Below are positions 465 to 19,773 of a stretch of DNA of 64,000 bases, one piece after another. The notes under the pieces were generated by a model. The model was not told the DNA's origin and ran no database searches. It saw only the letters and a program-made list of their open reading frames with translations. A program made the position numbers and the translations under genes. The first letter of the stretch is position 1. Every line of letters begins with the position of its first letter. This DNA is from Escherichia coli (GTDB lineage: Bacteria > Pseudomonadota > Gammaproteobacteria > Enterobacterales > Enterobacteriaceae), in assembly GCF_003790525.1 (NCBI RefSeq), contig NZ_CP033636.1, one strand, 5' to 3'.

Positions 465-537
465 GTTTTACCTGTTGCATGAAATTATTGATGTTATATA
501 AACACAACCGGCATTTTATCTAATAGGTTTGAAAACA

Positions 538-795: not shown

Positions 796-802
796 TGAAA
801 AA

Positions 803-1393: not shown

Positions 1394-1437
1394 TCTTTAG
1401 TGAACATCCTTAAAAGTGGAAATGTAGGTTTATGGGT

Positions 1438-1743
1438 TTATGCATTTTCCTGATGGCCTTGACAACCAAGGATTTCACAGAAATTGTCACAGTGTGAAGC
1501 TGTAACAAAGCGCTCTCCACGTTCGAATCGCTCAACCAAATCCTTTCTTACTTCACTTCCAGGTTTCTGGAAGATGTACTCAAGCTGGAGATCCTCGGCC
1601 GTAGAAAGTAGTCGTTCTATGCTGAAATCAACATGGTAAAAGCAAAACTGATTATCAACCGGGGGAAAGTTGCTTTTGGTACTGTTCTCGTTTTTGGATT
1701 TTAGTTCATTCATGAGCTCTCCTTGGTTGAGAACAGTATACAA
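1438..1743 (-). CDS. hypothetical protein (101 aa) with Cys/His cluster near C-terminus
   Basis: ORF track; C-terminal HCDNFCEILGCQGH cluster; no further assignment possible. Confidence 0.4.
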   Translation of the reverse strand: MYTVLNQGELMNELKSKNENSTKSNFPPVDNQFCFYHVDFSIERLLSTAEDLQLEYIFQKPGSEVRKDLVERFERGERFVTASHCDNFCEILGCQGHQENA

Positions 1744-1912
1744 ATCTCTTTAGGGATTTTTTTTCGTTAATAGCACTTTTTTGAGTTTAAAGAGTATGTT
1801 CATACCAGAGCATTAGAGGCTACGAAAAGGATAATGGAATTAGAAAGATAGATTTTAAGTGGTGATGTAAGGTGGGATAGGTAGAAGAGGAGTAGACGCT
1901 TGTAAGCGAGGC

Positions 1913-1937
1913 AAAAAAAAGGCACGGAAACCGTGCC
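1913..1937 (-). terminator. putative intrinsic terminator closing the long minus-strand operon
   Basis: GGCACGG-AAA-CCGTGCC hairpin (1921-1937) adjacent to A8 run on plus strand, i.e. hairpin followed by U8 on the minus-strand transcript, 40 nt downstream of the stop of the 1977-2939 gene. Confidence 0.55.
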
Positions 1938-1976
1938 ATAAGAGTATGTGAGAAAAAATCAAAATCAGGGAAAGAA

Positions 1977-2939
1977 TCAAGCAGCTTGTGAAACTGAATC
2001 TCCAACTGCAAGATTTAAATTTCTTAGGTTATCGAAAACTTCAGATACTAAGTCATTACGGTCGTGGATTTTAATCCGCCCACCGGTTAACTCTGAAACA
2101 TAAACGGTATGGCAGAGGTCAGTAACCACTTCGCCGTATTCATCAACGACTTCCAAAGATGCAATCATCGGAATATAAGAAGCCGCAGCATAGCTCTCAT
2201 AAATACTTATTATGGAGTCATTGTTGCGTCGAGAAATTACCCTACCAGAAGGTAAAGCCTCATCTTCCATATAGCAATCAGATAGGTCCTCACAGAAGTC
2301 ATTTTCTTTAAGTGAAATATTAAGGGTCAATTCACTGTTGATAGAGCGTGAATAAGAATATTCACTCAGTTTATAGCAAGCCAAACTAATATCACTAAAA
2401 GTTTCATAAGCTTTATAGAGGCTCGATGTTATAGACTCAGATACAAATGTTATTAGTCCAATAAAATGAGTATCCCAGAACTGTTGCAAAGCAAAACGGG
2501 CAATCATAACCTGACCATCAACCTGCATCAGTCTGTTATATTCATCCCGGTCATAACCTTTCGACTGAGAAACATCATTAGACATGCTAAGAACTTCACT
2601 ACAAACATCATCATATTCAAAACGACTAGTTGCAAAGTGTTTTCCTGAAATTTCAAGGTACTGACCAGAGACTGCGTCAAACACCTCAAGAAAGTAACAG
2701 AGTCGCGATTTTAAAGATTCTCTGTTTAAAGCTTCTATTTCATTCTCAGAGATACTATCGACATATAAATCAACAACATTCTTGAGTTCAATAGCTTTGA
2801 TATTACAGGTAAAAGAAAGCTCGTCACTTTGACAATGGCAAACACTTAATACTATATCCGCCTCATCAAAATCTATGCCAAGATAACTCAGAACTGCTCG
2901 GACATAGTTTTTATCATCAGATGAATGTGTCATATACAC
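1977..2939 (-). CDS. hypothetical protein, member A of tandem ~300-aa paralog family
   Basis: ORF track 320 aa; shares clear sequence blocks with the next gene upstream (VDGQVMIARFALQQFWDTHF vs VDGKVLVAKFALKQFFHSDF; DRNDLVSEVFDNLRN vs DRTLLITEAFDDFRN). Confidence 0.6.
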   Translation of the reverse strand: MYMTHSSDDKNYVRAVLSYLGIDFDEADIVLSVCHCQSDELSFTCNIKAIELKNVVDLYVDSISENEIEALNRESLKSRLCYFLEVFDAVSGQYLEISGKHFATSRFEYDDVCSEVLSMSNDVSQSKGYDRDEYNRLMQVDGQVMIARFALQQFWDTHFIGLITFVSESITSSLYKAYETFSDISLACYKLSEYSYSRSINSELTLNISLKENDFCEDLSDCYMEDEALPSGRVISRRNNDSIISIYESYAAASYIPMIASLEVVDEYGEVVTDLCHTVYVSELTGGRIKIHDRNDLVSEVFDNLRNLNLAVGDSVSQAA

Positions 2940-3104
2940 TACCTCGAATTTGAGAGGAAGTGCCCCAGAAGGGAAGCGACTTCCCCACTGGGTTAGATAA
3001 AAATTTGGTTAAGCTAAAAGAAGATGCCAGCGACAGATTTTACATTGTCATAGACAAGTGTCTTCAGCCAACCAAAGTTACTTTTTTGGACTGAAGCAAA
3101 AGGA

Positions 3105-4043
3105 TCATTGAGACGCGTTACGAAAATCGTCAAAAGCTTCAGTTATTAGTAATGTGCGATCAGTTACTCTGTATCGGTCATTACTTTCGAGAGATACGTA
3201 AGTTGAATGCGAAGAATCACAGACAACACGCCCTCTTTTATTGATCAATCTTACTTCCATCATCACCGGCACATTGATAATTGAAGCAACATCGGTATAG
3301 AGGGATATGAGGGCATCATTGTCACAATATAACGCCCCGTTCCCATCAAATGTATCGTTAAACTTAATATATATATCTGGCATATTTGCCGGATAATCAT
3401 CAGTATTGAAATCAATGCATAACTTTAAGTCATCATTAATACGGCGATTAATCTTATGCTGCCCTACACGTACAAAGCCATGTTCAACAGCTTTGATAAT
3501 CCTTAAAGTTTCATTAAGACAATCTGTAATTCTTTTCTCGACAAATGAGATAAAGTCACCAAAGTCGGAATGAAAAAACTGTTTAAGTGCAAATTTCGCA
3601 ACTAACACTTTCCCATCCACCTTCATTTTATCGAGATAAAGATTTCTTATAGCATCAGTAGAAGAATTAGCTTTAGATAACTCTTCACAGTCATTAATAA
3701 TCATTGAAACAATATCAATAACTTTAACTGGGCTTAAAGTATTACTATATCCGCGAATATCAAACGTAAAAAATCCGAAATTCTTAAATACTCCAAGAAA
3801 ATAAATTATTTTTTGTTTCAAAAGAATAGAATCGGAGTAAGATGCGTTGTGCTTTATTAGCTCAGATATGTAGAGATCCAACATACAATTTAAATTATCG
3901 ATATCTACATCGTAATCAAAGGTTACTTTGTCGAACGAAGTATCAGATAATTGAACGGTTATATCGTCAGCGGAAACATTAAGGCCTAAATTTTGATAAA
4001 GAAAGGCACTAACAAATTCCACGTGGTCAGATTCTTTAAACAT
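3105..4043 (-). CDS. hypothetical protein, member B of tandem ~300-aa paralog family
   Basis: ORF track 312 aa; paralogous to 1977-2939 (see shared blocks). Confidence 0.6.
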   Translation of the reverse strand: MFKESDHVEFVSAFLYQNLGLNVSADDITVQLSDTSFDKVTFDYDVDIDNLNCMLDLYISELIKHNASYSDSILLKQKIIYFLGVFKNFGFFTFDIRGYSNTLSPVKVIDIVSMIINDCEELSKANSSTDAIRNLYLDKMKVDGKVLVAKFALKQFFHSDFGDFISFVEKRITDCLNETLRIIKAVEHGFVRVGQHKINRRINDDLKLCIDFNTDDYPANMPDIYIKFNDTFDGNGALYCDNDALISLYTDVASIINVPVMMEVRLINKRGRVVCDSSHSTYVSLESNDRYRVTDRTLLITEAFDDFRNASQ

Positions 4044-4061
4044 TTACACTACCTCATGACT

Positions 4062-4106
4062 AAAAAGGAAGTGCTTCCCACCGGGAAGCAGGTTCCCGGA
4101 TGGGTT
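4062..4106 (-). terminator. intergenic compound GC hairpin (putative terminator/attenuator)
   Basis: Nested inverted repeats CCCATCCGGGAA...TTCCCGGTGGG and GGAAG..CTTCC with A5 on plus strand = U5 after hairpin on minus transcript; lies between stop of 4110-5030 and start of 3105-4043. Confidence 0.4.
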
Positions 4107-4109
4107 AGA

Positions 4110-5030
4110 TTAATTATAAAAGAGTTCTTCAGAAGGTACATGCATTTCTGGTTTGAACTGTTTTAAGGAGTTGTTTATAGCTTTTCGATATAACCCTGAA
4201 GAGTGTGGCTTAAACATTTGATATTCCGTAACGAGCAGAGGAGACGTAAAGCATCCTAAGTTCACTAGTGAAATACTTGATGTTTCTTCACAAACATCTA
4301 ATTCAGCGTATATCCGCCTCTTCATTACCCTGCCTGCTAAATAGCGACGAACATGATTTATAAACTTGTCCGCATCTGATATAGAATTAACTATATAATC
4401 AGATGTGACTATCTGATTAGATACAGTTTCAGGTATAGCTTCGGCTATTATTTTTACGTTCATTTCATAATCAACACTATGGAAGCAAGCAAGAATTTGT
4501 GGCTTCGCGCTTTCTAAAATCTTTTCAAGAACAGAAAAAATCAGAGAGAACTCGTTTAAAATTCGCTTTTGTATAAGTCCATGTAGATGTTTTATGAAAG
4601 GAGAACCGTGTTCAACAAGGCCTAGTATAAGATCCTTAGAGGCCAAATCTGAGCGGTAATAAACGTATTCTAGATTATCCCGGTTAAATCCTTTGAAAAG
4701 CAAATCAGGCTGCTCTGAGACCAGTCGTAAATGAGTTGAAGCTATAGAAACTTCAAAACGAAAGTTCGCGAGATTTACAGGACCTGCTTTTAATGTAGCC
4801 GCTTCGGAAAAATAAATGAAAAGAGGATGCAAATCATCGTTACCACTGTAAAGATGGTCTGCACCCTTAAGATATTTCACCAAATGAGGTAGAAAAGATA
4901 TTACTGGAATATCAGCCACAAATCGAATATGCCGAAATGGTTTTGAATCCAAATATATATTTTCCACTACAGCGCCAACAAAACCCATTTTAACAAGAAT
5001 AGATTCAACTAACTTTTGTATAGCATTCAT
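4110..5030 (-). CDS. hypothetical protein (~300-aa family, divergent member)
   Basis: ORF track 306 aa; N-terminal motif KLVESILVKMG resembles N-termini of the 5099-6049 and 6105-6983 products. Confidence 0.55.
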   Translation of the reverse strand: MNAIQKLVESILVKMGFVGAVVENIYLDSKPFRHIRFVADIPVISFLPHLVKYLKGADHLYSGNDDLHPLFIYFSEAATLKAGPVNLANFRFEVSIASTHLRLVSEQPDLLFKGFNRDNLEYVYYRSDLASKDLILGLVEHGSPFIKHLHGLIQKRILNEFSLIFSVLEKILESAKPQILACFHSVDYEMNVKIIAEAIPETVSNQIVTSDYIVNSISDADKFINHVRRYLAGRVMKRRIYAELDVCEETSSISLVNLGCFTSPLLVTEYQMFKPHSSGLYRKAINNSLKQFKPEMHVPSEELFYN

Positions 5031-5098
5031 TTCAATACCCTCTTAATAGAGGGATTTCTCCCATAGGGAGAAATCCCTATGGGAGAAAATAATTTTAA

Positions 5099-6049
5099 TT
5101 AATAATTATAGCGAAGCGCATGTTCTTTTTCACTAAGATGGTTTTCATATTCCGACTTACCAGAACTTAAACACTCTTTGAAAAAGACCTTTGAAAAATT
5201 CTTCAAGTCACTTCGGTTATTAATTTCTTTGTCAGACATCAACTTAGCTGAGTGTGAGGTATCAACAGGCCCCAACCACCATTCATATTTAATATAAACA
5301 CAATTGGTTTGTGTATGTCCATTTAGAAATCGTTTTGCATTTCTAAGTATTTTTCTACAACCGTTAAGGTCTGAAAGTAAGATATCTGGAGCAATGAGCT
5401 CTTCCAGAATATGACCAGGTAAGCCTTTCCTAAAAAGCTCAACATCGTAACTACAATACCAGTCACGATAATTAAAAGCTTTAATAAGTCTTTCAGGTGT
5501 ATCCAAAGATATCTTATTCAGGATTTTTAATGCAAAGCATACAGCATCTTTTAACAACTCGTGCACCTCAACATTGATAAATGAGAAAAACGAGCTTAAT
5601 TCTTTCTCTAAGGAATTATACAACTTACCGTAAATATCCTGAGAAAAAAGATACTGCAATCTTTCTTTATTATAAGTGCAATTCGAAATTGAATAGACTT
5701 CTCCTCTTTCGATTTTGCACCCTTCCCTTAAAACTATAGGAAACCTCAAATGGTTAACAAAGAAAGAATGATTCTTTCTTTGCTTCAAAGCATCTAATTG
5801 AAATTTCGTAATTTCCTCCAGATTTGCATCTTCAAAACCTGGAAAGGGAATATCACAGAAACAAGAACTATATGCTTTTGCTGATTCATACATAAACTCC
5901 AGTGAAACATCAGCATCAAAAGACATACCAGAGAACATGCCCTGCCCATTGTCTAAAAATGTAATGTTTTTAACCTGTATTTTTTTATGTTGAACAACCA
6001 AAAAGGCATTAATGATTTTTTCGATAATTTTCATGTGATCCTCTCTCAA
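5099..6049 (-). CDS. hypothetical protein (~300-aa family, divergent member)
   Basis: ORF track 316 aa; N-terminal KIIEKIINAFLV motif; true start may be the internal Met at residue 6. Confidence 0.55.
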   Translation of the reverse strand: MREDHMKIIEKIINAFLVVQHKKIQVKNITFLDNGQGMFSGMSFDADVSLEFMYESAKAYSSCFCDIPFPGFEDANLEEITKFQLDALKQRKNHSFFVNHLRFPIVLREGCKIERGEVYSISNCTYNKERLQYLFSQDIYGKLYNSLEKELSSFFSFINVEVHELLKDAVCFALKILNKISLDTPERLIKAFNYRDWYCSYDVELFRKGLPGHILEELIAPDILLSDLNGCRKILRNAKRFLNGHTQTNCVYIKYEWWLGPVDTSHSAKLMSDKEINNRSDLKNFSKVFFKECLSSGKSEYENHLSEKEHALRYNY

Positions 6050-6050
6050 T

Positions 6051-6094
6051 AAAAAAAGGGATCACTCCCATATGGGGTGTGATCCCCACATGGG
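6051..6094 (-). terminator. intergenic compound GC hairpin (putative terminator/attenuator)
   Basis: GGGATCAC...GTGATCCC and CCCATATGGGG inverted repeats preceded by A7 on plus strand (U7 after hairpin on minus transcript). Confidence 0.4.
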
Positions 6095-6104
6095 TATAAT
6101 TTAA

Positions 6105-6983
6105 TTAAAAATCTGTAAGACCTAAATCTTTATTTCTACCACAAACTGTAGAAGATATAAGACGTTTTACTCGCTTTCGAGCACTTCGGCCTGACGTATC
6201 TTTCAAGTACATCGGTAATGACAATGATGAAATTTGATTACTTCGCTTATGATGGCAGACTATATAGCCCTGCCTCCACCCCGAACGCACAAACTCACGG
6301 ATGCGGTTAATATATGCCGAAGCTTGAGATTTTGTACTTATCGATTCAGAACACTTTAAGTTCTGTTCGATAGAGTAAAGCTCAGCCGCCATGAATTTCA
6401 CCTCATACAGCTCATCGCCATAACTTATAGTTTTCAACAGCTCTTCCTTTTCCCGAATGAAAAATACTTGCTGCATTCCAAGGATCAGGTCATAGGCCTC
6501 TCGAAAGAGGTCGATAAGCTTATTACGAACATAAATCATAAACTCCTCAAAGTGCTGAAGCCAGAAATAAGCCGCATTACTTATTTGTGAATTGTGAGAA
6601 CAAACAAGCCCTTTAGCAAGCTCGACCTCTTCCTCCCGAAAAGTAAAGTTACTTTTCTTAAACCGACTTTGTTCAAAAATGCTTTGATGCATTTCTATCC
6701 ATACAGAAACAAAACCGAGGGATTCAAATTCTTCGTTTAACAAATGTAAACTTTCGAAGATTTTCTGAATTTCGATCCCGATGTCATATGACAGTGGACA
6801 TTCTTTTATAGAATAAACATAACCGGGTAGGAAGTGAGATAAATGCTCAGTTCGCAAATATAAACTGAATTTAAGTTCTGTCAGTGGTTGTTTCAAAGAT
6901 AACTTAGATGATTCGCTTATATTTACTGGTTCAACGCCATTTCTAATCAAAATAGCTTTTACCAGGTCCGTAGCTAACTTCAT
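6105..6983 (-). CDS. hypothetical protein (~300-aa family, divergent member)
   Basis: ORF track 292 aa; N-terminal DLVKAILIRNGV motif shared with neighbours. Confidence 0.55.
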   Translation of the reverse strand: MKLATDLVKAILIRNGVEPVNISESSKLSLKQPLTELKFSLYLRTEHLSHFLPGYVYSIKECPLSYDIGIEIQKIFESLHLLNEEFESLGFVSVWIEMHQSIFEQSRFKKSNFTFREEEVELAKGLVCSHNSQISNAAYFWLQHFEEFMIYVRNKLIDLFREAYDLILGMQQVFFIREKEELLKTISYGDELYEVKFMAAELYSIEQNLKCSESISTKSQASAYINRIREFVRSGWRQGYIVCHHKRSNQISSLSLPMYLKDTSGRSARKRVKRLISSTVCGRNKDLGLTDF

Positions 6984-7061
6984 ACAGCCTCCATTCGTTA
7001 TTGAGGCCTCCCTGATGCAGGTTGGCCATCAGGGAAAATATGTAAATCAATTAGCAATCAA

Positions 7062-7583
7062 TCAGACCGTTGCCATGACATTGTCAATGTATCTGACAAG
7101 GGATGGGCGGTCGTCCTGTAAGGCAAAACGGCGAAGGTCATCAAGATTATACGCAGGAAGATAATCAGCGTAACCTCGAATACGAAGGTCCTCAACCACA
7201 ACTTTTATATACTCAAATCGTCCAAGATTCCCTTTTAATGGGGGTTTTCCTGGACTAGACAGCATATCGTCTGCTTGCTCCCATGTGATTTCTTTAGCTT
7301 CACCACTATGTAGATCAAGATGGACATATATGAATGACTTATAATCTCCACGGCAACGAAGATAATATTTCGGATAGAAATATTTGTCACAACGCAACAA
7401 ACACGTTCCTGAAGGACGAACTACGTACAACAGGTTTCTGTCATTTTCTAATATGCTATGTTTCAAAATCGTTATATCTATCTCATTATCATGCAGCAAA
7501 TAGCATGACGATGGTTCATTGACGATGCGCGATTTTATAACAGCAGCAAATTTATTAAAAACTTCGTTAATTTGAAAATTCAT
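7062..7583 (-). CDS. hypothetical protein (173 aa)
   Basis: ORF track; within the co-directional gene string; no motif recognised. Confidence 0.5.
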   Translation of the reverse strand: MNFQINEVFNKFAAVIKSRIVNEPSSCYLLHDNEIDITILKHSILENDRNLLYVVRPSGTCLLRCDKYFYPKYYLRCRGDYKSFIYVHLDLHSGEAKEITWEQADDMLSSPGKPPLKGNLGRFEYIKVVVEDLRIRGYADYLPAYNLDDLRRFALQDDRPSLVRYIDNVMATV

Positions 7584-7774
7584 TAAAATGCTCTCCGATG
7601 TAAAACGACGAGCATCACCATAACGGTAATACTCCCGTTATGGGTTTTAATAGTTTATGGAATAACCATGTCATACAACCGACCATAGCCAGTAGTACCG
7701 CACATTTATTTAACTGAGCAAGCATCTCAGCCGTGAAAAGACCTTAAAGGCAGGTAATTATCACGAAGGAAAGC

Positions 7775-7822
7775 GGTTATCTTATCAATACAATTTTAAA
7801 ATATAATATTGATAAGATAACC
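7775..7822. promoter_or_regulatory. perfect 16-bp inverted repeat (GGTTATCTTATCAATA / TATTGATAAGATAACC) with 16-nt AT-rich spacer; candidate operator or structured site
   Basis: Read directly from sequence at 7775-7790 and 7807-7822; sits between primase stop (7854) and the next gene start (7583). Confidence 0.35.
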
Positions 7823-7841
7823 CCCCCCGCAAAAAGCGGGG
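7823..7841 (-). terminator. putative intrinsic terminator after primase gene
   Basis: CCCCCGC-AAAAA-GCGGGGG hairpin directly downstream of the 7854-9158 stop codon on the minus strand. Confidence 0.45.
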
Positions 7842-7853
7842 GAGTTATCGTTG

Positions 7854-9158
7854 TTACAGCTGATTAAGACATTCAGGAGCCCAGTGAATCGGGAATCCAT
7901 CCTGCCCTGTTAACTGGAGAACATCGTTCCAGTCGATACCCTTTTTCCCATCAGGAATATCTTGTGCTGGTTCGAAGACTTCAATTGTCAGCTTTGATGC
8001 GGGATATCGTTTAGCCAAAAACTCAACCATGCGGCTTTGAAGTCGCTGAGCAGCTTCAATACCGGCACGAGTGCCTTGTGAGTTAGCAATATCCTTATCC
8101 GCCCAGATATAAAAGTTTATAGATTTTACATCCGGCGGAGGCAGTAAAAAATCAGGAACAGTAACGTTTTCAAGGCACCATGCGGAGCTGGCTGCCCAGC
8201 ATGGTGTTGAAGTCGCTTCTACAACAGAAAGCGCGTTCTCGATCCCTTCAGCCACTCCCAGTGTCCAGGTCGAACTACCTGAATCATAGTGAGGGTCAAA
8301 CAACTGAATTGAGCCACCTGTCATATCGGCAGGAGGCTTCATCATCAGCTTTGGATTTTCTACAGGTGCCTTATCACCATTTTTGTCTACGTATGTTCTA
8401 TGAATAGTCAGAGGCCGACCTCGGGTGTCACGATAGATCGCAATCATTCCCGGATAGATAATCGATTTCTGCTTATCTTTATCCCAATAGTAGATCCGGT
8501 TATTAAAGCCTAAATCCTTTGGTAAGTGACTCAGTAAGCGGGAGATCCCACGATTACGGAGGTACAAAGCAACAGGAGTATTAGGCTTGATTTCACCGGT
8601 ATAGTGATACATCACATCAAGTTTTCGCATTCGCTTTGCCACTTCCTCTCGGTCAAGAGTTTCTGTGGCACGAACTGCTGATTTATAGCGTCGTTCATTT
8701 TCAATGTCGGCGTCAGTTAACGGAGCATGCAGATCCATCCCGAAAAAATCTGAGAGAATCTTTTTGCAAGTCTGCGTTTTACTTAATTCATAATATTTCG
8801 CCAGAACATCAATTCCGTCGCAAAACTCATTTACCGGAAAGTCATTATGGATCGCACATCCGGTATAAAGGTCTTTTTGTCGGAAACGAAACTTCGATTT
8901 CCCTGCGCCAGTAAACGGGCAAGGAACCTGGCTCGGGGCTTTTGCACAAGCGTCTTTGAAAGCAGGTATTCTTTCGAATATATACTTCCAGCCAGACACT
9001 TCAGCAATTCGAGCATGAACGAGTTTAATAAAGTGTTCAGATACTTCCTGTGGATTACGACGAAGAGCCGGGGATGCATAAGTCATGATGATCTCTCTTA
9101 TCTGGCATTGTGAGTTTCTCAATGCCTTCTGCGGTGCAGAAGACAGGGAGAAACCCAC
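7854..9158 (-). CDS. DNA primase (zinc-ribbon CHC2-like motif plus Toprim domain)
   Basis: ORF track 434 aa; CPFTGAGKSKFRF...C...H motif typical of primase zinc-binding domains (P4 alpha / plasmid primase type) and Toprim-like GVAEGIENALSV...DKD segment. Confidence 0.65.
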   Translation of the reverse strand: MGFSLSSAPQKALRNSQCQIREIIMTYASPALRRNPQEVSEHFIKLVHARIAEVSGWKYIFERIPAFKDACAKAPSQVPCPFTGAGKSKFRFRQKDLYTGCAIHNDFPVNEFCDGIDVLAKYYELSKTQTCKKILSDFFGMDLHAPLTDADIENERRYKSAVRATETLDREEVAKRMRKLDVMYHYTGEIKPNTPVALYLRNRGISRLLSHLPKDLGFNNRIYYWDKDKQKSIIYPGMIAIYRDTRGRPLTIHRTYVDKNGDKAPVENPKLMMKPPADMTGGSIQLFDPHYDSGSSTWTLGVAEGIENALSVVEATSTPCWAASSAWCLENVTVPDFLLPPPDVKSINFYIWADKDIANSQGTRAGIEAAQRLQSRMVEFLAKRYPASKLTIEVFEPAQDIPDGKKGIDWNDVLQLTGQDGFPIHWAPECLNQL

Positions 9159-9199
9159 AACGCAGAATTTAAGAAAGAGGGCCCGGGGGCCCTCAACAT

Positions 9200-9421
9200 T
9201 TATGCTTCAGTCGTGAAGCCATTATTCTCAAGACACTGTATGTAGTTATCTACAAGTAACGCAGCCTGCTGGCTATTACCCTCCGCTATAGTGACTTCGC
9301 GGAAGATTCTTTCCTGAGGGCTATCATTGCTTATAACTTCACCAACACGTCCGAAAATACGGACTTTATGCATCGCACCGACTTTTTCATGTTCTACACG
9401 GTAAGTTTTTATCTGAGTCAT
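9200..9421 (-). CDS. hypothetical protein (73 aa)
   Basis: ORF track; flanked by intergenic hairpins in the operon; no motif. Confidence 0.4.
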   Translation of the reverse strand: MTQIKTYRVEHEKVGAMHKVRIFGRVGEVISNDSPQERIFREVTIAEGNSQQAALLVDNYIQCLENNGFTTEA

Positions 9422-9448
9422 ATTTTGCTCCTTATTCCTTCATGGAGC

Positions 9449-9485
9449 AAAAAGACCCACCGGGGCCTTTTGCCCCGATTGGGTA
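9449..9485 (-). terminator. intergenic GC hairpin (putative terminator/attenuator)
   Basis: CCCACCGGGGC...GCCCCGATTGGG imperfect inverted repeat with A5 on plus strand side. Confidence 0.35.
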
Positions 9486-9492
9486 GAGTTTA

Positions 9493-11505
9493 TTAAGAAA
9501 GTATTTGATGAACTAGCTTACTGACTTCAATAGACAATAAAGAAGTATCATCAACTGTTACGAAAGTGTCCGTTTCAAAACCAATTATTTCATCAGTCTT
9601 AATACCAACACCAACGATTTCTATTCCATTACATTTAGCCTTTTCCATAACTTCGCCGATAGTAAATTCCGATTTATTCGGATAACCATCAGTTATAAGA
9701 AAAATTATTTTCCTATCGAATTGGCTGTCAAGTAACAGATCAACAGCTGCCATTAAAGCCGATCCCGTAGGGGTATAATAACCCTTACATCCAAGAGTGA
9801 ATTTCGATAGAGATTCCTCAACGCTTTGATCAAACGTTTTGATAATCTCAAATTCACTTTCCTTGAAGGGAAAGACTATATTGGAGACATGCATTTTTGA
9901 CAAACTTTCAGCGGCCATCGATAAAGCAAGATCTGACTTAATGGCATGAATATATCTTTCATCATTAGCCATTGACGCTGAAATATCACGAACTAATACG
10001 AGGCCAACATGCCCTCTATTTTTAGATTCGCTTTGAGCTCTGAAGACATCACGAACTCCCATTGGTGACAGAATTAATCGATTTCCATCGAAGGTAATTC
10101 CACGCTCATGAGTTTTGTTTCGGCCACGCATTTTAACCTGCTGTAAAACAGACAAGTCGCTACCGATTGAATGACTCAGAGACAAAGCCTCATTGTAAAC
10201 ATTCAAATCGATAAGGAGATCAGGGATATCCCATTCAGAAGCACCGAATTCGGCTTTCACGTCATCGGATACTTTTGATGCAATACCTTCAATCTCTTCA
10301 GCCAAAGCATCGTGATAATCTTCGCTATCCTCATCACTGCCAAGAAAGGCATCCAACAAATCTGCCAGTATCTCCCATTGAGCCGATGAAAAGTTACTTT
10401 CATCTTCAACGTTAGTCGAACTGGCTTCATCTGATTCACTCTCGGAAGGGTTAATCGCATCAGTATCGTCTTCAATAATGTTATCACCTGTGGGATTGCC
10501 ACCGGTGGGTTCATTATTTCCCTCGTTATCTTCAGCAAGTTCTGAAGGCTCAGAACATCCCTCTTGAGCAAGATCAGAGTTATCGGAAGTATCTGCCTGA
10601 CCTTCACTATCGTCCTCAGAATCATCCTCACGACTATCAGTCGACTCAAGCGATTTATCTTCTGATTCGGTATCGGTATCGGTATCGGTCTCGGATTCAT
10701 CATATGCCTCCTGCTCCTCCTGCTCTGTCTGCTGCTGTTGTTCCCTTGCCTCATCCCGCAGTCTCTCTAAAAGAGCCAGGGTCTTACGAGCAAGGGATTC
10801 ACAGCCCTGAGTATTTTCACAACCAAGAGCATCATGAAAAATTTCCTCAACATCAGAAATTACTGGAGAAAGTATCTTTTGGGCATAGTCAAAAAACGGA
10901 TCGAGTGTTTCTTTGTGACCTGCCTGCTGAAGGACTTTTACTCGCAATGAGTTAAGCAGATACCACTCAATAAATAGGACAGGATTTTCCGGACGAGAAG
11001 ATATATCAGGAGTCATCCTTCCGGCTTTAACCATCAGTGCGTAAGTGGCTGCAAGCCGCCGCTTTGCATCCGGATAATCGTTACCAACCTTCTCTTCCAT
11101 CTGTACATCATCGAACAGATTTATAAGCCCGGTAAGACGTTTTGCCCTGCTATAAGCTTTACGTTTCTCAGCGAGGCTCTCAAACTCTGCATTCATTCCG
11201 TCATCGAAGCGTGTAAACCCTTCAGATGACTTGAGAACACTATTAAAGGCGTCACTGTAAACCTCGCTGTCGGTATAGCGACCATGACCAGCTTCATGAC
11301 AGGTAAAACCTTCAATCAGACTGACAAAGTCATCATCGCTATAATCGCCGTTTGGTAAAACACAAACTTTATTTACAGGATCAAAATACGGTCCTTTGGT
11401 ATTGTCGTCTATTACAACTCTTACATCGCCTAAGCCGCTAATGACTTTTGCTATATTCTGTAAACGCTTAATATGGCGCGGTGATGATTTAAGATCTAAT
11501 TTCAT
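9493..11505 (-). CDS. CobT-like protein: N-terminal domain, long acidic low-complexity linker, C-terminal von Willebrand factor A (VWA) domain
   Basis: ORF track 670 aa; C-terminal VGLVLVRDISASM (DxSxS MIDAS motif) followed by VWA-like pattern; central ~120 aa stretch extremely rich in D/E/S/T (ESETDTDTDTESEDKSLESTDSREDDSEDDSEG...), as in aerobic cobaltochelatase CobT-type proteins. Confidence 0.65.
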   Translation of the reverse strand: MKLDLKSSPRHIKRLQNIAKVISGLGDVRVVIDDNTKGPYFDPVNKVCVLPNGDYSDDDFVSLIEGFTCHEAGHGRYTDSEVYSDAFNSVLKSSEGFTRFDDGMNAEFESLAEKRKAYSRAKRLTGLINLFDDVQMEEKVGNDYPDAKRRLAATYALMVKAGRMTPDISSRPENPVLFIEWYLLNSLRVKVLQQAGHKETLDPFFDYAQKILSPVISDVEEIFHDALGCENTQGCESLARKTLALLERLRDEAREQQQQTEQEEQEAYDESETDTDTDTESEDKSLESTDSREDDSEDDSEGQADTSDNSDLAQEGCSEPSELAEDNEGNNEPTGGNPTGDNIIEDDTDAINPSESESDEASSTNVEDESNFSSAQWEILADLLDAFLGSDEDSEDYHDALAEEIEGIASKVSDDVKAEFGASEWDIPDLLIDLNVYNEALSLSHSIGSDLSVLQQVKMRGRNKTHERGITFDGNRLILSPMGVRDVFRAQSESKNRGHVGLVLVRDISASMANDERYIHAIKSDLALSMAAESLSKMHVSNIVFPFKESEFEIIKTFDQSVEESLSKFTLGCKGYYTPTGSALMAAVDLLLDSQFDRKIIFLITDGYPNKSEFTIGEVMEKAKCNGIEIVGVGIKTDEIIGFETDTFVTVDDTSLLSIEVSKLVHQILS

Positions 11506-11520
11506 AGAATACCTCTTTAT

Positions 11521-11567
11521 AAAAAAGGGGTACTCACCCAGATGGTGAAGTACCCATCTGGGGTTTT
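11521..11567 (-). terminator. intergenic compound GC hairpin (putative terminator/attenuator)
   Basis: GGGTACTCACC / GGTGAAGTACCC and CCCAGATGG / CCATCTGGG inverted repeats; A6 on plus strand = U6 after hairpin on minus transcript, just upstream of next RBS. Confidence 0.4.
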
Positions 11568-11582
11568 TAATAAAGCAAACAG

Positions 11583-12710
11583 TTACCAGCCTTTGAGCTC
11601 GATATCAAAACCATTTTCAACATTGTCTTCCTGTTGCGAAACTGATTTCTCAGGTTCAGCTACAGGATCAGTGTTTGAAAACGTGCTGTTATTTATATCG
11701 TTCTCTACGACAGGTTCAACCTGGAACACATTTGTTGAATCTAAAATAGCTTCAATACCTGTGTTCTGTAGCGCGTTCGGTTCTGTTTGTGAGCTTTGAT
11801 TAAATGATCTGGTAATAGATTCCAACCAGTCAGTAACCTTTTGCTCTCCTGAAATAATACGCTTTAACATTGAAGCATCACTCATGAAATAAAACCACTG
11901 CTGTAACACCGCAACGTCGCGAGGTTCAGAAATGGCACCTTTAGGTAAATTATTCATTATGTGTTTTATAGCTTCTGCAAGTACTGCCGCCTCTTTATGT
12001 ATAAACATGAAGCTAATGATCTTATTTTGCATTTGCTTCAGTCGGTCAATAGTACTTGAGCGCAAATTGTTATTTTTGCTAATTTTTTCATAAACCTTCA
12101 TTGCTTCTTCTGCCAGATCTGTTATCAATTGTTCCTGATAGTAGTCCTGGGTTTCATCACCTTCAACGCTAATAGGCGTAAAAGGAATAAAGTGAGCAAT
12201 ATTAAATCTAAAGGATTTTATGAAATCATCTTTAGTTAATTTCAACTGATCAATCAAAGAAGACATTCTTGGGCTTCTATTTTTTTCAGCCTCAATATGC
12301 ATCTCATAATTGTCTACAACGTTTTGAATACCTGCCTGAAACTCTCGTTCAATCTCTTGGGCCCCTTCCAGAAACTCTTCCATACTGGATACTGGTAAAA
12401 TCCACATATTGCTATAGCGGATGCACAAGCGTGAGCAAAGAGTTGATATTCTGCTGGTAATCGTACTTTTGAAGCTAAGGGCTTTTATGTCAATCCAGCG
12501 TACTTCGCTTTTAGATACGCTTTTTTGATCCGTAATATCATCTCCATCATAAGACAAATCGATTTTATCGGTTCGACGCGATCCTTGACAGCCACTTATT
12601 TCAATTTTTGTTATAACTGCACCTTCCAGTAAATCTGGATATGATTTTGCAAAATTCTCAGAGATTTGTTTTGCAGATACTTTGTTAAGCATTGAAGTAT
12701 TTAAAGTCAT
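11583..12710 (-). CDS. hypothetical protein (~375 aa)
   Basis: ORF track gives 11583-12722, but the codon at 12722-12720 is TTG; the ATG at 12710-12708 with GGAG 7 nt upstream is a more plausible start. No motif recognised. Confidence 0.5.
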   Translation of the reverse strand: MTLNTSMLNKVSAKQISENFAKSYPDLLEGAVITKIEISGCQGSRRTDKIDLSYDGDDITDQKSVSKSEVRWIDIKALSFKSTITSRISTLCSRLCIRYSNMWILPVSSMEEFLEGAQEIEREFQAGIQNVVDNYEMHIEAEKNRSPRMSSLIDQLKLTKDDFIKSFRFNIAHFIPFTPISVEGDETQDYYQEQLITDLAEEAMKVYEKISKNNNLRSSTIDRLKQMQNKIISFMFIHKEAAVLAEAIKHIMNNLPKGAISEPRDVAVLQQWFYFMSDASMLKRIISGEQKVTDWLESITRSFNQSSQTEPNALQNTGIEAILDSTNVFQVEPVVENDINNSTFSNTDPVAEPEKSVSQQEDNVENGFDIELKGW

Positions 12711-12720
12711 GGGTTTCTCC

Positions 12721-12770
12721 AAAAAAAAGGGGAAACCCTCCCCAACGGGAAAGATTTCCCGATAGGGTTG
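12721..12770 (-). terminator. intergenic compound GC hairpin (putative intrinsic terminator)
   Basis: GGGGAAACCCTCCCC and CGGGAAAGATTTCCCG hairpins; A8 on plus strand = U8 following hairpin on minus transcript. Confidence 0.45.
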
Positions 12771-13078
12771 ATATTAAAGCTTCTCTGGTGAAATTAAAAG
12801 AATACCGGGAAACTCAGCAACAACATCATCATTGCCCATTGCTCCCTGATACATATAACCTTTTAATTCCATTTGTTTAATCAGACCTTCCATATTTATT
12901 TTACCATCATGATAAAACAATAAAGAATAGTCGTTATTCAGTTGCATAAGTCCAGTAAAATTAGTTCCGTTTTTTGCTATAGCAATGGTAGCAGCACCAT
13001 CCGTACTTAAAAACGCACTAAATTCAAGATGGGATAACTCTGAGATACAAATATCAGAGGTTTCATAACAAATCCCAT

Positions 13079-14137
13079 CTAACTCGACTTTTTTGCTGTG
13101 AAATACTCCAGCGATTTATCCTTGTCTTCGCCAAGAGAAAGATCTATAGCTTGAAGAACAAGATCGACCACATGTAAAGGTAAAGCAGAAGCAAAAGCTA
13201 TTTTGAAAGTGTCAAGAAGACTAAAGGTTTTTAACGTCATCGACGTGCCAACCCAAGCTACTAATTGACGAATATCCATCACACTGTCTTCTGTACCAGA
13301 GTCATTTACTGCAATCGCTACTCTTACGAACTTCTCAATGACCTGAAAAGGCAAAGAGCTATATCGTTTAGTAAGCACATTGGTTAAAGCAACTTTGTCG
13401 GGCTTCTCCATTTCAACTATCAAGAACCGCTTTATAAAAGCTGCATCTTGACGTTGAGAAGAAACGAACCGGCGAGCGCCTCCACTCATGTTTGTGTTTG
13501 CAGTACCAATAAATCGCGTGTAGCCATTAGCAGTTATAACCTCACCACCATTAGCACTGAGTGACCAGGGCTTACGTTCAATGGGCATGTGAAGTTTTGC
13601 TGCCGTATCAGGATCGATTTTGTCCACTTCATCCAGAAGAATGAGGTGACCATTACGAAATCCCGTTACCAAATCGCTGTGTACAAAACCTGTATTACCA
13701 CCATTAAGACTGCGCTCACCTTCAAGCTCATCAACTCGAATATTGCTGTTGATCTGCTTAATTGTCAGCGGCCAATTCATCATGTGGCTAATGTACATTA
13801 CCATTTCAGTCTTGCCAGAACCGGACTCACCTTTAAGACACACACTTAAATCTATATCCGGACTGATAAGCAGTTTAACCACTTGTTCAAGTATTCGGGG
13901 ATTTGGTATGTAGTCTTTGTTCAGCGGAGCTCGATACGAGGTTTTAGTTTTGAAAACAGGCACAGCCATCTTTGGATCCATTTCTGGAATACCAAAAAGG
14001 TCCTTTGCTAGAACTAAAAGATACTCACCTTTATCCACATAATGTTTTAACTTTATAACATCCGGGGAAAGAAGAGCTTCTAATTTTTCATAAGCATCAG
14101 AAGATGTTTCATTTAACTTCATAGCGGCATTAGACAT
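13079..14137 (-). CDS. AAA+ ATPase, MoxR/CobS-like
   Basis: ORF track 352 aa; Walker A GESGSGKTE, Walker B hhhhDE (LILLDEVDK), size and motif spacing as in CobS/MoxR-class ATPases; encoded in the same operon as the CobT-like VWA protein. Confidence 0.7.
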   Translation of the reverse strand: MSNAAMKLNETSSDAYEKLEALLSPDVIKLKHYVDKGEYLLVLAKDLFGIPEMDPKMAVPVFKTKTSYRAPLNKDYIPNPRILEQVVKLLISPDIDLSVCLKGESGSGKTEMVMYISHMMNWPLTIKQINSNIRVDELEGERSLNGGNTGFVHSDLVTGFRNGHLILLDEVDKIDPDTAAKLHMPIERKPWSLSANGGEVITANGYTRFIGTANTNMSGGARRFVSSQRQDAAFIKRFLIVEMEKPDKVALTNVLTKRYSSLPFQVIEKFVRVAIAVNDSGTEDSVMDIRQLVAWVGTSMTLKTFSLLDTFKIAFASALPLHVVDLVLQAIDLSLGEDKDKSLEYFTAKKSS

Positions 14138-14194
14138 TTTTAACTCCGGTAAAATGCAAACACCGCCCTCTGGCAGATGTTTGCCAGTGGCATT

Positions 14195-15172
14195 TTATTT
14201 GAGATTCATTTGGCAAATAGTTGCCATCAGTTTCCTGATTTGAGGCACATTATAACCAAGATGATTTCCCACTATTTCAAAAGCTTCAGACATGATCCAT
14301 TCAAAATGATTTTCGAATATTGGATTGATTTCTAACTTGCCAAAAGCGTTTCGTTTAGTTAACAGATCACATGAAACAAGCTCGTCAAACAACTCTAATG
14401 TGGATTTAAAAGCTTTTATGTAAACATCCATAATTTCCCTGTCAGTCCATTTAACAGCCAGTTTTTTTTCTGACATTAAATAATCCTGATCAAAGAAGAT
14501 GTCCCAGCCCATATCGTCATTGCAATCATGCAAAATGATTTCATCATCATTCCTGCATTCAGCTAATTTCGTGTTTTCACTAATCGAACGATGCGAATGA
14601 TAATAGAGCCATGATTTTAATTCCGCTCTAAATTCACATGCATCAAGTCCATGACATAAACAAGTGTATTCAAATGATTTTGACATATACCACCGTGTTT
14701 CAGCTTCTAAAAGTGGATTCACTGTGATATTACCATTGTCATCTTTGAAGAATAACTTTCTCCTCAACACTAGTTCTTTAATGATTTCCAAAGACTCTTC
14801 CATAGCGGATAGAAAAACAACATACACATCCTCAGGGGTCCATTCTATTACCAGACCACCCAAATCTGGGTTATATTCTTCAACCGTATATAGATAATCT
14901 GTTTCTGCTGCAAAATTAATTGTATGCAAAATCTGATTTTTAAGTAATTTGGATTTTTCATAAAGGTGATTTTCACGCCTTTCAGAATCATAATTTATCT
15001 CAGAAATGTTACTTTCTTCTGATTTAAAGTTTAATCCGGACGTGTAAGCATCATTTAAATGCTCTTTGGGTGAATCAACTATTTGCGTTATTTCATCTTC
15101 ATCTATATCGAGTATAGAAAAAAAACTAAGTTGATTACTACTTATTGCAGTAGCCCTAAATTTTTGTTTCAT
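14195..15172 (-). CDS. hypothetical protein (325 aa)
   Basis: ORF track; no motif recognised. Confidence 0.5.
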   Translation of the reverse strand: MKQKFRATAISSNQLSFFSILDIDEDEITQIVDSPKEHLNDAYTSGLNFKSEESNISEINYDSERRENHLYEKSKLLKNQILHTINFAAETDYLYTVEEYNPDLGGLVIEWTPEDVYVVFLSAMEESLEIIKELVLRRKLFFKDDNGNITVNPLLEAETRWYMSKSFEYTCLCHGLDACEFRAELKSWLYYHSHRSISENTKLAECRNDDEIILHDCNDDMGWDIFFDQDYLMSEKKLAVKWTDREIMDVYIKAFKSTLELFDELVSCDLLTKRNAFGKLEINPIFENHFEWIMSEAFEIVGNHLGYNVPQIRKLMATICQMNLK

Positions 15173-15180
15173 GGGGACTC

Positions 15181-15225
15181 CAAAAGGAGAAATCCCATGA
15201 AGGGATTTCTCCCCTTTAGGGTGGG
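15181..15225 (-). terminator. intergenic compound GC hairpin (putative terminator/attenuator)
   Basis: GGAGAAATCCC-ATGAA-GGGATTTCTCC perfect inverted repeat between 14195-15172 and 15233-15610. Confidence 0.4.
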
Positions 15226-15232
15226 TTTAATG

Positions 15233-15610
15233 TCAGATCTGATTAAAGCTACTTTGTCCAAAACCTTTTAGAGGTTTAGGTATGTGAGCCAACTTACTTG
15301 TTGCTACCACTCTCATGTAGTCAAGAGGATGTTCTCTCCCTTCAATCATAATAGTATCGACAACAATATAACCGGAGACCATCAACTCATCACCCTGATT
15401 TATACCAGTGAAACAGGTTGAATACATTTCAGGCGACACCTTGATTTGAACTGAAAATTCTCTCTCAGTGATTTCACCATCAACTTCTGTCTTCATCCTA
15501 TTTTTGAGCTTTATTAACAAACCTATACTCTGGTCAGTCATTTTTTTCTCCACAGCACTGATAACTATCCCGGACACTTTTACTTCATTGATATATTCAA
15601 GATATGACAT
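15233..15610 (-). CDS. hypothetical protein (125 aa)
   Basis: ORF track; beta-rich pattern loosely reminiscent of OB-fold proteins but not assignable. Confidence 0.45.
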   Translation of the reverse strand: MSYLEYINEVKVSGIVISAVEKKMTDQSIGLLIKLKNRMKTEVDGEITEREFSVQIKVSPEMYSTCFTGINQGDELMVSGYIVVDTIMIEGREHPLDYMRVVATSKLAHIPKPLKGFGQSSFNQI

Positions 15611-15667
15611 TTTCCGCTCCTCGATTTGTTCAAAGAGAAGCCCCGTTAGGGTTCCCCCTTAACAGGA

Positions 15668-16540
15668 TTAAATAAATTTATTAGTTACATACATGAACGT
15701 GCAGACTACCAAACAGGCAATTCCGGCAATATGTAACCAATTTCTTGTTGGTTTAGTTGGTGCAATCGCTAAAGAGTTCTCCAACTTCTCTGTTACAAGA
15801 CGTCGATTCTCTGCTTTAGCCGCATCATCTAAATATTGAGTTTCACGCTTAGCGAGAGTCTCAATTTTCGATTTTATTGCATGGTCCCATCCTTTAGTTT
15901 CAAAAACGCTTAACTCACTAAAGGTGTGCGTCATGAGATCTTCTGGGAAACCCAGTTTTTTCATTAACGGACGAATGGTATCATACATTTTTTCTACATT
16001 TTCGTAGTGGGCCTTTACTGCGACATCAAAACGCTTACGTAAAGTTAATTTTTCACGTTTGCAAATGATGTCCGAAACCCAATTTATTAACTGCTCATTT
16101 TTGAGTTCACTGGCTTTTTCAAGTGAGTAATCCAGATTATCCACGTCAAGAAATGAATTTAATCCGTATTTTTCAAACTCCTCAACAAGATATTTATCCA
16201 GTTCAGTTAAGCTTTTAAAAAGTGGTACATCTGGGGAAGCTTTAAGAAGCTTATAAGCTCCTTCGAAATCAATTTTCTTGACCACGAGCTCCACAACATC
16301 CACATGATAATAGCTTGAATAAGCAGAAAGCTTTTCGGCCAACAAAGACACAGGCTTAAGAGACTTAAGTTCAATGATATTTGGGCCGTCCTCATTCAAA
16401 ATAACAATCAGTTCATTATCACGTTCTGTATATTTCATCAGAACTTCTAAGAGCTGTTTGTTTAGCGCCTTATCCATCTCTGGAATAATTTCACTAAAGG
16501 TTTGATGAAGGGCTTTACTGCGAGCTTTATTTTTAGACAT
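15668..16540 (-). CDS. hypothetical protein with C-terminal transmembrane anchor
   Basis: ORF track 290 aa; single hydrophobic helix at extreme C-terminus (WLHIAGIACLVVCTFMYV); first gene of the long minus-strand string. Confidence 0.5.
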   Translation of the reverse strand: MSKNKARSKALHQTFSEIIPEMDKALNKQLLEVLMKYTERDNELIVILNEDGPNIIELKSLKPVSLLAEKLSAYSSYYHVDVVELVVKKIDFEGAYKLLKASPDVPLFKSLTELDKYLVEEFEKYGLNSFLDVDNLDYSLEKASELKNEQLINWVSDIICKREKLTLRKRFDVAVKAHYENVEKMYDTIRPLMKKLGFPEDLMTHTFSELSVFETKGWDHAIKSKIETLAKRETQYLDDAAKAENRRLVTEKLENSLAIAPTKPTRNWLHIAGIACLVVCTFMYVTNKFI

Positions 16541-16934
16541 TTGGGGTCACCTATATATAGTAAGAAGGAAGAAACAATTTTTTGTTTCAACACGAAGGCA
16601 AAGCCTGTCATTCATCTCCCGTAAGCTATGAACCGCCTGATTTATACTATCTGGCATTAGAAGTACGCAACAAAAATAGCTCCAGGAGGAGCTAAATTAG
16701 TTACGGTTTGGTAAATTCAGATTGCCTTTTTCAGGCATGGGAAGTGCACCAGCGACAAAGGTGACATTTTGCCGGTGGTGTCTTACAGCTTGTTTAAGCT
16801 GGCCGCTTTTCACGGCTAAATCAACGCTTAACGCGAAAGTAACTTTAAGCAAAGTTACTCAAATTTGGGAGCTGATATTTAAGCTCATTGTTTTTATACT
16901 ATAGCTTTAAGCATAAGTAAATGCCCATATCGAA

Positions 16935-18719: not shown

Positions 18720-18898
18720 TTCAACCTCATTACTTCGTTTTAATAATTATACATTTTTATAAAAGCGCTTTTCTTGTGTACTGCTGGTTCTACTGGAAAT
18801 CACTTTTTTTCCTTTTTTATGCAATCAGGTTGTTTGTGAAACGCGTGACTATGGAATAATGGTTCCATCTCCAAAAGACATTACAAAAAGGGCTTTAA

Positions 18899-19771: not shown

Positions 19772-19773
19772 TT

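Follow-up and report, generated by a model that had tools for sequence, protein, structure and literature searches.

The Gene String and Its Plasmid

The window analyzed here, a stretch of 64,000 nucleotides (nt) from the Escherichia coli contig NZ_CP033636.1, is backbone of a conjugative IncHI2 (R478-type) plasmid. Eleven gene junctions in a string of genes on its minus strand carry a single family of intercistronic modules of approximately 60 nt, which are the subject of this analysis. The region at 2900-15300 matches over 1100 plasmid records at 99–100% identity, a 78-nt piece is shared without change with R478 (NC_005211.1), and the TraN/TrhN model has a full-length match near the gene string. 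The string lies downstream of the helicase gene trhI (16935-18719), and runs through genes of 290, 125, and 325 amino acids (aa), a CobS-like AAA ATPase, a 57-aa open reading frame (ORF), DUF3150, a CobT-like VWA gene, a 73-aa ORF, a Toprim gene, a 173-aa gene, and five ORFs of approximately 300 aa (p5 to p1), the gene starts being those of the RefSeq annotation.

For most of the proteins of this string, Pfam, NCBIfam, the PHROGs, and PADLOC give no assignment, and a Pfam search of the 125-aa, 318-aa, and 325-aa proteins returned no match. A phage origin of the window was rejected, given that the PHROGs gave only primase-like and CobT-like matches and that the backbone is that of an IncHI2 plasmid, and the operon was also rejected as a defence system, as PADLOC gave no meaningful match. 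The IncHI plasmids (R27, R478, and pNDM-MAR types) are major vehicles by which multidrug resistance is carried in Salmonella, E. coli, Enterobacter, and Klebsiella. The operon is a conserved part of their backbone, found in approximately 2000 plasmid records, yet nearly all of it is unannotated.

A Family of Modules between the Genes

The family is defined by a near-invariant core, CCC…GGG…CC(C)…GGG, on the minus (transcript) strand. The regular expression CCC-N3-5-GGG-N3-9-CCC-N3-5-GGG has seven matches in the 64 kb, all of them within the spacers of the gene string, where 0.01 would be expected from dinucleotide shuffles of the whole window, and 0.027 when the spacers alone are shuffled. The z-scores of the minimum free energy (MFE) of the spacers are mostly −4 to −7, and 17 of the 30 strongest minus-strand 60-nt folds of the window fall within 2933-15672, which is 20% of its length. 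A covariance model built from the family alignment recovers further, non-seed members, and finds no member elsewhere in the window, in the remaining 170 kb or so of a complete IncHI2 plasmid (236 kb), or in a syntenic Aeromonas plasmid. An Rfam scan of positions 1-20000 gave four sub-threshold chance hits, none of them at a module, and searches of the literature turned up neither an account of these elements nor any term-seq or RNA-seq data for IncHI plasmids.

A first-pass annotation of this DNA had pointed to GC-rich compound inverted repeats in these spacers, which are indeed present on the transcript strand, and had listed eleven sites as a family. Nine of these sites (2953, 4062, 5050, 6058, 7005, 9453, 11521, 12721, and 15183) belong to the family, and those at 9177 and 14151 do not; the members at 7581-7645 and 15608-15668 were absent from the list. 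The motif search also recovered a shared core, of which the earlier wording, GGGA-N4-6-TCCC, was an approximation.

Module Anatomy

Each spacer was folded from the stop codon to the start codon, and all the structures described here are predicted. Hairpin I comes first, with the core ACCC-n4-GGG … CCC-n4-GGG, in which (A)CCC pairs with GGG(U) on the outside and GGG with CCC on the inside. After a gap of mostly 0–2 nt, and at most 5 nt, comes hairpin II, whose 3' arm is the Shine–Dalgarno (SD) sequence of the next gene. In IncHI2, this second hairpin stops 1–9 nt short of the AUG, and across the lineages its end ranges from 8 nt before the AUG to 4 nt inside it. The run of U residues found in some modules is the 5' side of its loop. 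The module can thus be divided into four segments, with 1:2 forming hairpin I, 3:4 forming hairpin II, and segment 4 being the SD region of the next gene.

A third helix competes with these hairpins and is mutually exclusive with both of them. In this helix, segment 2 (the inner 5' arm and the loop of hairpin I) pairs with segment 3 (the 5' arm of hairpin II). This 2:3 helix has an energy of −13 to −22 kcal/mol, within about 1–5 kcal/mol of hairpin I at most junctions, and is significant in comparison with shuffled versions of segment 3 in most groups of junctions (p = 0.003–0.03). As segments 2 and 4 are both complementary to segment 3, segment 2 resembles the SD segment, as in the module between p5 and p4, where GGGGAUCAC may be compared with GAGGAUCAC. 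In the full spacers of IncHI2, hairpins I and II together form the MFE fold at ten of the 11 junctions, and the 2:3 helix prevails only at 15170-15226. Two adjacent hairpins are also the MFE structure at nearly all the junctions of the seven lineages sampled.

Predicted Closure of the Ribosome-Binding Sites

The cost of opening a ribosome-binding site (RBS) was calculated over the ensemble, for the release of positions −13 to +3 from pairing. For ten of the module genes this cost is 8.6–13 kcal/mol, whereas 39 other genes of the window have a median of 4.1 (Mann–Whitney p = 0.01, when all 15 genes of the string are counted, including those that have no module). The sites of two string genes that lack a module are open, at 1.8 kcal/mol for the AAA gene and 2.0 for the Toprim gene. 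When the outer 5' part of hairpin I is blocked in silico, the accessibility of the SD sequence rises from 0–0.2 to 0.4–0.8 in approximately half of the modules tested.

Other candidate readings were considered and rejected. An RNA thermometer, suggested by the cold-favoured transfer of the IncHI plasmids, was set aside because the sites are predicted to remain closed from 15 to 42 °C: the opening cost of the ten closed-site genes is 10.8–15.9 kcal/mol at 25 °C and 7.7–11.8 at 42 °C, and that of the 325-aa gene is lower at all temperatures (6.2 at 25 °C and 4.9 at 42 °C). The hairpin loops, when the sequences were read by eye, contained none of the GGA motifs of CsrA-type sites. A separate internal promoter for each module was rejected because the promoter scan gave fewer hits than the shuffles, and none systematically at the modules. 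A “segment 0” within the upstream ORF, which would extend the alternating pairings, was rejected because complementarity was only at the level of chance, with four of 47 comparisons of segment 1 with the final 50 nt upstream reaching p < 0.05.

Probable Action in RNA Rather Than DNA

Inverted repeats fold on both strands, and the antisense strand of the modules does so as well (z of about −3.5). Together with the DNA-metabolism genes in the neighborhood, which include the helicase and Toprim genes of the operon itself, this raises the question of an element that acts in DNA. Such an element might form hairpins in single-stranded DNA during transfer or replication, for priming or protein binding, or be a cruciform or protein site, or a mobile repeat resembling repetitive extragenic palindromes (REP) or miniature inverted-repeat transposable elements. 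The sense strand is systematically favored, however, with 74 G·U pairs in the sense folds against 36 in the antisense folds, and 35 of 47 modules fold more stably on this strand (Wilcoxon p = 9e-5); when a single representative is taken per junction and clade, the sense strand is favored in 14 of 17 (p = 0.006).

A DNA element would also have no need for a structure locked to the SD sequence and the AUG of each gene, and the variable spacing of the CCC and GGG blocks is ill-suited to a double-stranded protein site. As for transposed repeats, the module copies differ in sequence and are confined to the operon. A function at the level of the DNA is thus highly improbable, and the bias between the strands, together with the lock on the SD and the AUG, points to elements that act in the mRNA, and not in double-stranded or antisense DNA.

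Conservation across the Plasmid Lineages

Syntenic gene strings were compared in an IncHI1A lineage (L004), an IncHI1B-typed Citrobacter plasmid (L002), a Pseudocitrobacter contig (L009), and a second clade, formed by three plasmids or contigs, L005 (typed as IncFIB/IncHI1B), L006 (IncU), and L010, which is called MAR-type here, after pNDM-MAR. A scan of genome contigs for more lineages yielded two loci. The DUF3150 protein of the MAR-type clade is 35–40% identical to that of IncHI2, and six junctions of this clade carry modules of the same architecture, with stem sequences that are unrelated.

Varying columns among the orthologues amount to 16% of the paired positions against 45% of the unpaired ones, and the changes in the stems include 13 that are compensatory and 23 that are one-sided. 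One example involves all three pairings at once: in the p5–p4 module of the IncHI1 lineages, AUCAC is replaced by AUUAC in segment 2, GUGAU by GUAAU in segment 3, and AUCAC by AUUAC in segment 4. In an alignment of 36 modules, 71% of the cells are paired, in comparison with 41–54% when the partners are slid by one to three columns, and the covariation score was reached by none of 500 shuffles. Pairing to the SD sequence is kept in all the IncHI lineages sampled, and the maintenance across these lineages of a module that is repeated at eleven junctions implies strong selection on how the proteins are made.

The spacer between the AAA and DUF3150 genes of the MAR-type clade has a further peculiarity. 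At about 9871-9890 of L005, segment 1 of the module is a homopolymeric C tract, of 14 residues (C14) in L005, five (C5) in L006, and four (C4) in L010, and this tract beside the switch may be length-variable in these three lineages.

The Aeromonas media plasmid pAeme5 (L008, NZ_CP038449.1) has a syntenic string of helicase, Toprim, AAA, DUF3150, and VWA genes with another intercistronic family. Its spacers at 7617-18518 contain tandem mini-hairpins with C(UUCG)G tetraloops, such as AATCCTTCGGGATATGACGCCTTCGGGCA, and CCTTCGGG occurs in 20 copies on the coding strand and none on the other. These mini-hairpins lie just upstream of ribosome-binding sites that remain open (opening cost 0.5–6.5 kcal/mol).

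Possible Roles in Termination and Transcript Stability

The first-pass annotation had read the spacers as a chain of partial terminators or attenuators, or as RNA processing and stability elements, that would grade expression along the operon. In a chain of terminators, some of the RNA polymerases would stop at each junction, the level of mRNA would fall stepwise, and hairpin I would be the antiterminator. The hairpin that it took for a terminator is the central 2:3 helix. A tract of U4 to U8 lies directly 3' of this helix, as had been noted of the U-runs before the RBS, in five or six of the 11 IncHI2 modules, and in about half of the modules the nascent prefix has this helix as its MFE fold. 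A simple terminator scan also catches several of them (12760, 9479, 4090, and 12743, on the minus strand), out of the 30 sites that it found in 20 kb, where shuffled sequences gave 13.5. The IncHI1A, IncHI1B, and MAR-type orthologues, however, have a weak U-tract or none, and retain the pairing to the SD, and the hairpin-plus-U-run conformer is the MFE of the full spacer at just one of the 11 junctions. A terminator also leaves without explanation the complementarity of segment 3 to the downstream SD sequence, and the fact that hairpin II ends at the AUG.

A chain of intrinsic terminators is thus unlikely as the main function, and partial termination or RNA stabilization is possible as a secondary role of the U-tract modules of IncHI2. 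The suggestion of switch-like folding, made on the same occasion, has held up better, as the alternative pairings are mutually exclusive and nearly equal in energy, which makes switching plausible, although the conformer that was read as a terminator is the minor one, and the less conserved. Folding of the minus-strand RNA, proposed as a check, did produce compound structures, with an MFE that mostly consists of hairpins I and II, and with a pairing to the SD sequence that had escaped notice.

The REP elements and the intercistronic hairpins of phages are thought to act as punctuation in the processing and stability of mRNA. By analogy, the modules might be barriers to 3'-exonucleases, and might protect the 5' ends left when an endonuclease cuts the A/U-rich linkers, giving each segment of the transcript its own half-life. 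The modules are strand-specific and GC-rich, and form stable hairpins just past the stop codons of an AT-rich transcript, with A/U-rich single-stranded flanks, and the syntenic Aeromonas operon has other very stable mini-hairpins which do not close its ribosome-binding sites. A barrier requires only one stable hairpin, however, rather than a bistable design of three helices, and would not need the SD sequence and the last bases before the AUG as an arm of the structure. Punctuation of the transcript is, on this basis, a distinctly unlikely primary role.

A Candidate Mechanism for the Gating of Translation

The modules probably gate the initiation of translation cistron by cistron along the operon, a reading that is favored here by a modest degree of confidence. 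In the proposed ground state, the 1:2 and 3:4 hairpins would form and close the ribosome-binding site of the next gene. The formation of the 2:3 helix would exclude both hairpins, and free this site. The favored trigger is a ribosome that arrives at, or leaves, the upstream gene's stop codon, and would invade the 5' side of hairpin I. The outcome would be a translational coupling that is relayed by RNA and follows the logic of an ermC-type attenuator. The alternative is a kinetic window during transcription, in which the 2:3 helix would form before segment 4 is made, and then relax into hairpins I and II. This alternative arises because hairpin I and the 2:3 helix are nearly iso-energetic in the nascent prefix, and, in the U-tract modules, such a window would favor termination.

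The switch may, more tentatively, be repeated as a daisy chain of ribosome-actuated relays, through which translation would propagate gene by gene across the eleven junctions. A ribosome finishing one cistron would disturb hairpin I, the central helix would form, and an RBS located 40–70 nt downstream, beyond the direct reach of the terminating ribosome, would open. This chain is possible, although doubtful. If it is real, it would represent long-range translational coupling without re-initiation, and without an inhibitory strand inside the upstream gene, and the same conformer would double as a terminator in some lineages.

Several points weigh against the gating of translation by these modules. 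The closed state is favored by 8–16 kcal/mol at equilibrium, which implies that activation must be kinetic or assisted, and in only two or three modules would a ribosome that sits on the stop codon extend far enough, at equilibrium, to flip the structure. Hairpin I begins 0–38 nt past the stop codon, with a median of approximately 10 nt, and two modules have no stop codon within 100 nt. The 2:3 helix has no single register in the family alignment, where controls with slid partners do no worse than the true register. The alignment misses this helix because its register differs between modules, and it was assessed by tests of each module instead. The lineages are few (seven, in two clades) and related to one another, and the E-values of the covariance model are rough, with strong hits that are largely its own seeds. 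All the support comes from nearest-neighbor folding and comparative sequence, from which both the use of the switch in vivo and the nature of its trigger are inferred.

Published proteomic data on IncHI1 plasmids (PMC5390554, Table S3) were matched to the string by gene order, with TrhI (core gene 38) and the gene annotated as a cobaltochelatase (core gene 34) as anchors. Core genes 25–36, which correspond by gene order to the module-bearing stretch, were detected in only 3–7 of the 12 samples. The module-free first gene was detected in 11 of the 12, and TrhI and TrhN in 10–12. These data, which are weak evidence, are compatible with a damped, non-zero translation of the module genes.

How translational coupling works over long intercistronic distances is an open question (PMC12548453), for which the modules represent a natural test bed. 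They would also provide compact, composable parts for setting the ratios of expression in synthetic operons.

The Individual Modules

The modules, all on the minus strand, are described here in the order of transcription. The first, between the 290-aa and 125-aa genes (15608-15668), is a variant in which hairpin I occupies 15642-15666 and hairpin II 15616-15641, with the SD sequence GAGGAG and the AUG at 15608-15610. Its MFE structure is two adjacent hairpins (z = −4.1), the opening cost of the RBS is 8.6 kcal/mol, and the covariance model gives a weak hit (E = 0.34); the central 2:3 helix of this module is not significant. The module between the 125-aa and 325-aa genes (15170-15226) is the only one with the 2:3 helix as its MFE, formed by GGGGAGAAAUCCC and GGGAUUUCUCC, and followed by UUUU and the SD sequence GGAG. 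It has a covariance-model hit at 15159-15223 (E = 0.0018) and an opening cost of 5.2 kcal/mol, and its IncHI1A orthologue folds as hairpins I and II.

Between the 57-aa ORF and DUF3150 (12708-12769), hairpin I is found at 12740-12767 and hairpin II at 12711-12738 (GGGUUUCCCC…GGAGAAACCC), with a U8 loop. This module scores 57.8 bits with the covariance model, its 2:3 helix has an energy of −21.5 kcal/mol (p = 0.003), and the opening cost is 9.5 kcal/mol. The module between DUF3150 and the VWA gene (11503-11564), with hairpins at 11537-11562 and 11507-11535, scores 46.6 bits, with p = 0.003 for the 2:3 helix and an opening cost of 10.4 kcal/mol. That between the VWA gene and the 73-aa ORF (9419-9486) has hairpin I at 9455-9484 and hairpin II at 9423-9452 (UUUUUGCUCC…GGAGCAAAA), with 46.5 bits and 9.2 kcal/mol.

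The module before the 173-aa gene (7581-7645) lies approximately 200 nt past the stop codon of the Toprim gene, with hairpin I at 7618-7643, hairpin II at 7587-7616, a score of 39.8 bits, and an opening cost of 9.3 kcal/mol. A second variant, between the 173-aa gene and p5 (6981-7037), has the core CCCUGAUGG/CAUCAGGG, with hairpin I at 7009-7035, hairpin II at 6986-7008 (GGCCUC…GGAGGCU), and an opening cost of 10.2 kcal/mol; its orthologue in the IncHI1B-typed Citrobacter plasmid is a weak covariance-model hit (E = 0.19).

The module between p5 and p4 (6032-6096) is the exemplar of the family. Segment 1 is at 6084-6094 (CCCAUGUGGGG), the 3' arm of hairpin I at 6067-6077, segment 3 at 6054-6065 (GUGAUCCCUUUU), and segment 4, with the SD sequence, at 6035-6046 (…GAGGAUCAC), with the AUG at 6032-6034. 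The central helix is formed by GGGGAUCAC… and …GUGAUCCC. This module is the top hit of the covariance model, at 60.5 bits, and has a fold z-score of −7.0 and an opening cost of 13.0 kcal/mol.

Between p4 and p3 (5028-5090), hairpin I is at 5055-5088 and hairpin II at 5038-5053 (CCCUCU/AGAGGG), with a perfect central helix of 12 bp, GGGAUUUCUCCC/GGGAGAAAUCCC, a score of 39.4 bits, and an opening cost of 9.5 kcal/mol. The module between p3 and p2 (4041-4106) has hairpins at 4077-4104 and 4046-4074, U5 after the central helix, a score of 45.9 bits, a 2:3 helix with p = 0.003, and an opening cost of 8.9 kcal/mol. The last module, between p2 and p1 (2931-2994), lies approximately 105 nt past the stop codon of p2, with hairpins at 2964-2992 and 2936-2963, 41.6 bits, and 12.1 kcal/mol.

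Other Features of the Gene String

The two sites that were excluded from the family have structures of their own. The site at 9177 is a small, terminator-like hairpin (9177-9194), which adjoins a long, conserved hairpin of approximately 65 nt and 25 pairs (9101-9167, minus strand), with the small hairpin just upstream, between the 73-aa ORF and the Toprim gene. The long hairpin, which is also outside the family, is the strongest 60-nt fold of the window (−39.8 kcal/mol), and its sequence hardly differs between IncHI2/HI1 and the MAR-type clade, where the flanking proteins are just 40% or so identical. It is found in 1969 plasmid records at 84–100% identity, unannotated, and has no Rfam match. 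The site at 14151, in the spacer between the 325-aa and AAA genes (14138-14194), contains the nested repeats CTGGCA…TGCCAG and GCAAACA…TGTTTGC, which are near-invariant among the IncHI1 and IncHI2 lineages and weakly structured (z of about −1.5), and leave the RBS open.

The p1–p5 ORFs (1977-6983) are five tandem genes of 292–318 aa which belong to no PHROGs or NCBIfam family; PADLOC, tested with p1 and p4, and Pfam, tested with p1, also gave no match. Relatedness can be detected only between p1 and p2 (27% identity), so the modules that intervene are not simply recent duplicates of a gene plus its spacer. The 270-nt spacer between the Toprim and 173-aa genes has, within 7776-7844, a strong hairpin, CTCCCCCGC…GCGGGGGGG, at 7822-7844, followed by a perfect 15-bp inverted repeat, GTTATCTTATCAATA / TATTGATAAGATAAC (7807-7821 and 7776-7790). 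This arrangement looks like a terminator plus an operator, which suggests that the 173-aa gene and the five ORFs are a sub-operon under separate control. A strong hairpin at 19761-19820 (−31.2 kcal/mol, minus strand), between the convergent genes of a 290-aa lipoprotein and trhN, is probably a bidirectional terminator.

Comparison with Known Systems

The attenuators of the ermC type have four segments, with the pairings 1:2, 2:3, and 3:4, and the regulated SD sequence and start codon in segment 4. They open when segment 2 is freed and the 2:3 helix forms, the actuator being a ribosome on the upstream frame. The modules resemble the ermC- and cat-type attenuators in the 1:2 and 3:4 ground state, the exclusive 2:3 helix, and the position of the SD and start within 3:4. 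They differ in having a full-length upstream gene in place of a leader peptide or a stall site in segment 1, in the absence of a known inducer, and in their eleven repeats within a single operon; no leader ORF was seen on reading the spacers, without a systematic search for short ORFs. According to PMC5118997, the stalled ribosome destabilizes the inhibitory stem-loop.

Translational coupling by RNA unfolding, as in rpmI-rplT, the coat and lysis genes of MS2, and genes VII and IX of f1, also depends on a structure that silences the downstream RBS, and in the known cases one of the inhibitory strands is inside the upstream frame, or within its reach (PMC12548453). The modules share the structure-closed downstream RBS. 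In contrast, both of their strands are in the spacer, with segment 3 located 30–45 nt past the stop codon. As the module has no complementary sequence in the upstream ORF, the classical unfolding model (PMC12548453) cannot apply directly, and coupling via the modules would need a relay through hairpin I.

With the Rho-independent terminators and trp-type attenuators, the modules have in common a GC-rich hairpin, which is followed by a U-tract in some cases, and a competing upstream pairing that is reminiscent of an “antiterminator”. They differ in that the terminator conformer is minor, the U-tract is weak or absent in the IncHI1 and MAR-type orthologues, and an extra segment pairs with the SD sequence.

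The REP elements, the bacterial interspersed mosaic elements (BIME), and the CUUCGG hairpins of phage T4 are strand-specific, GC-rich palindromes that follow stop codons between the genes of operons, and the copies of the REP share a consensus sequence and are dispersed through the genome. The modules are likewise strand-specific, GC-rich palindromes located after stop codons. Each module has its own stem sequences, however, with only the CCC/GGG skeleton in common, and includes the SD sequence, and the family is limited to one operon in 236 kb.

The modules can thus be classed as structure-gated ribosome-binding sites with an attenuator-like alternative pairing. What sets them apart within this class is their modular repetition through a single operon, and an inhibitory helix that has both its strands outside the upstream gene.

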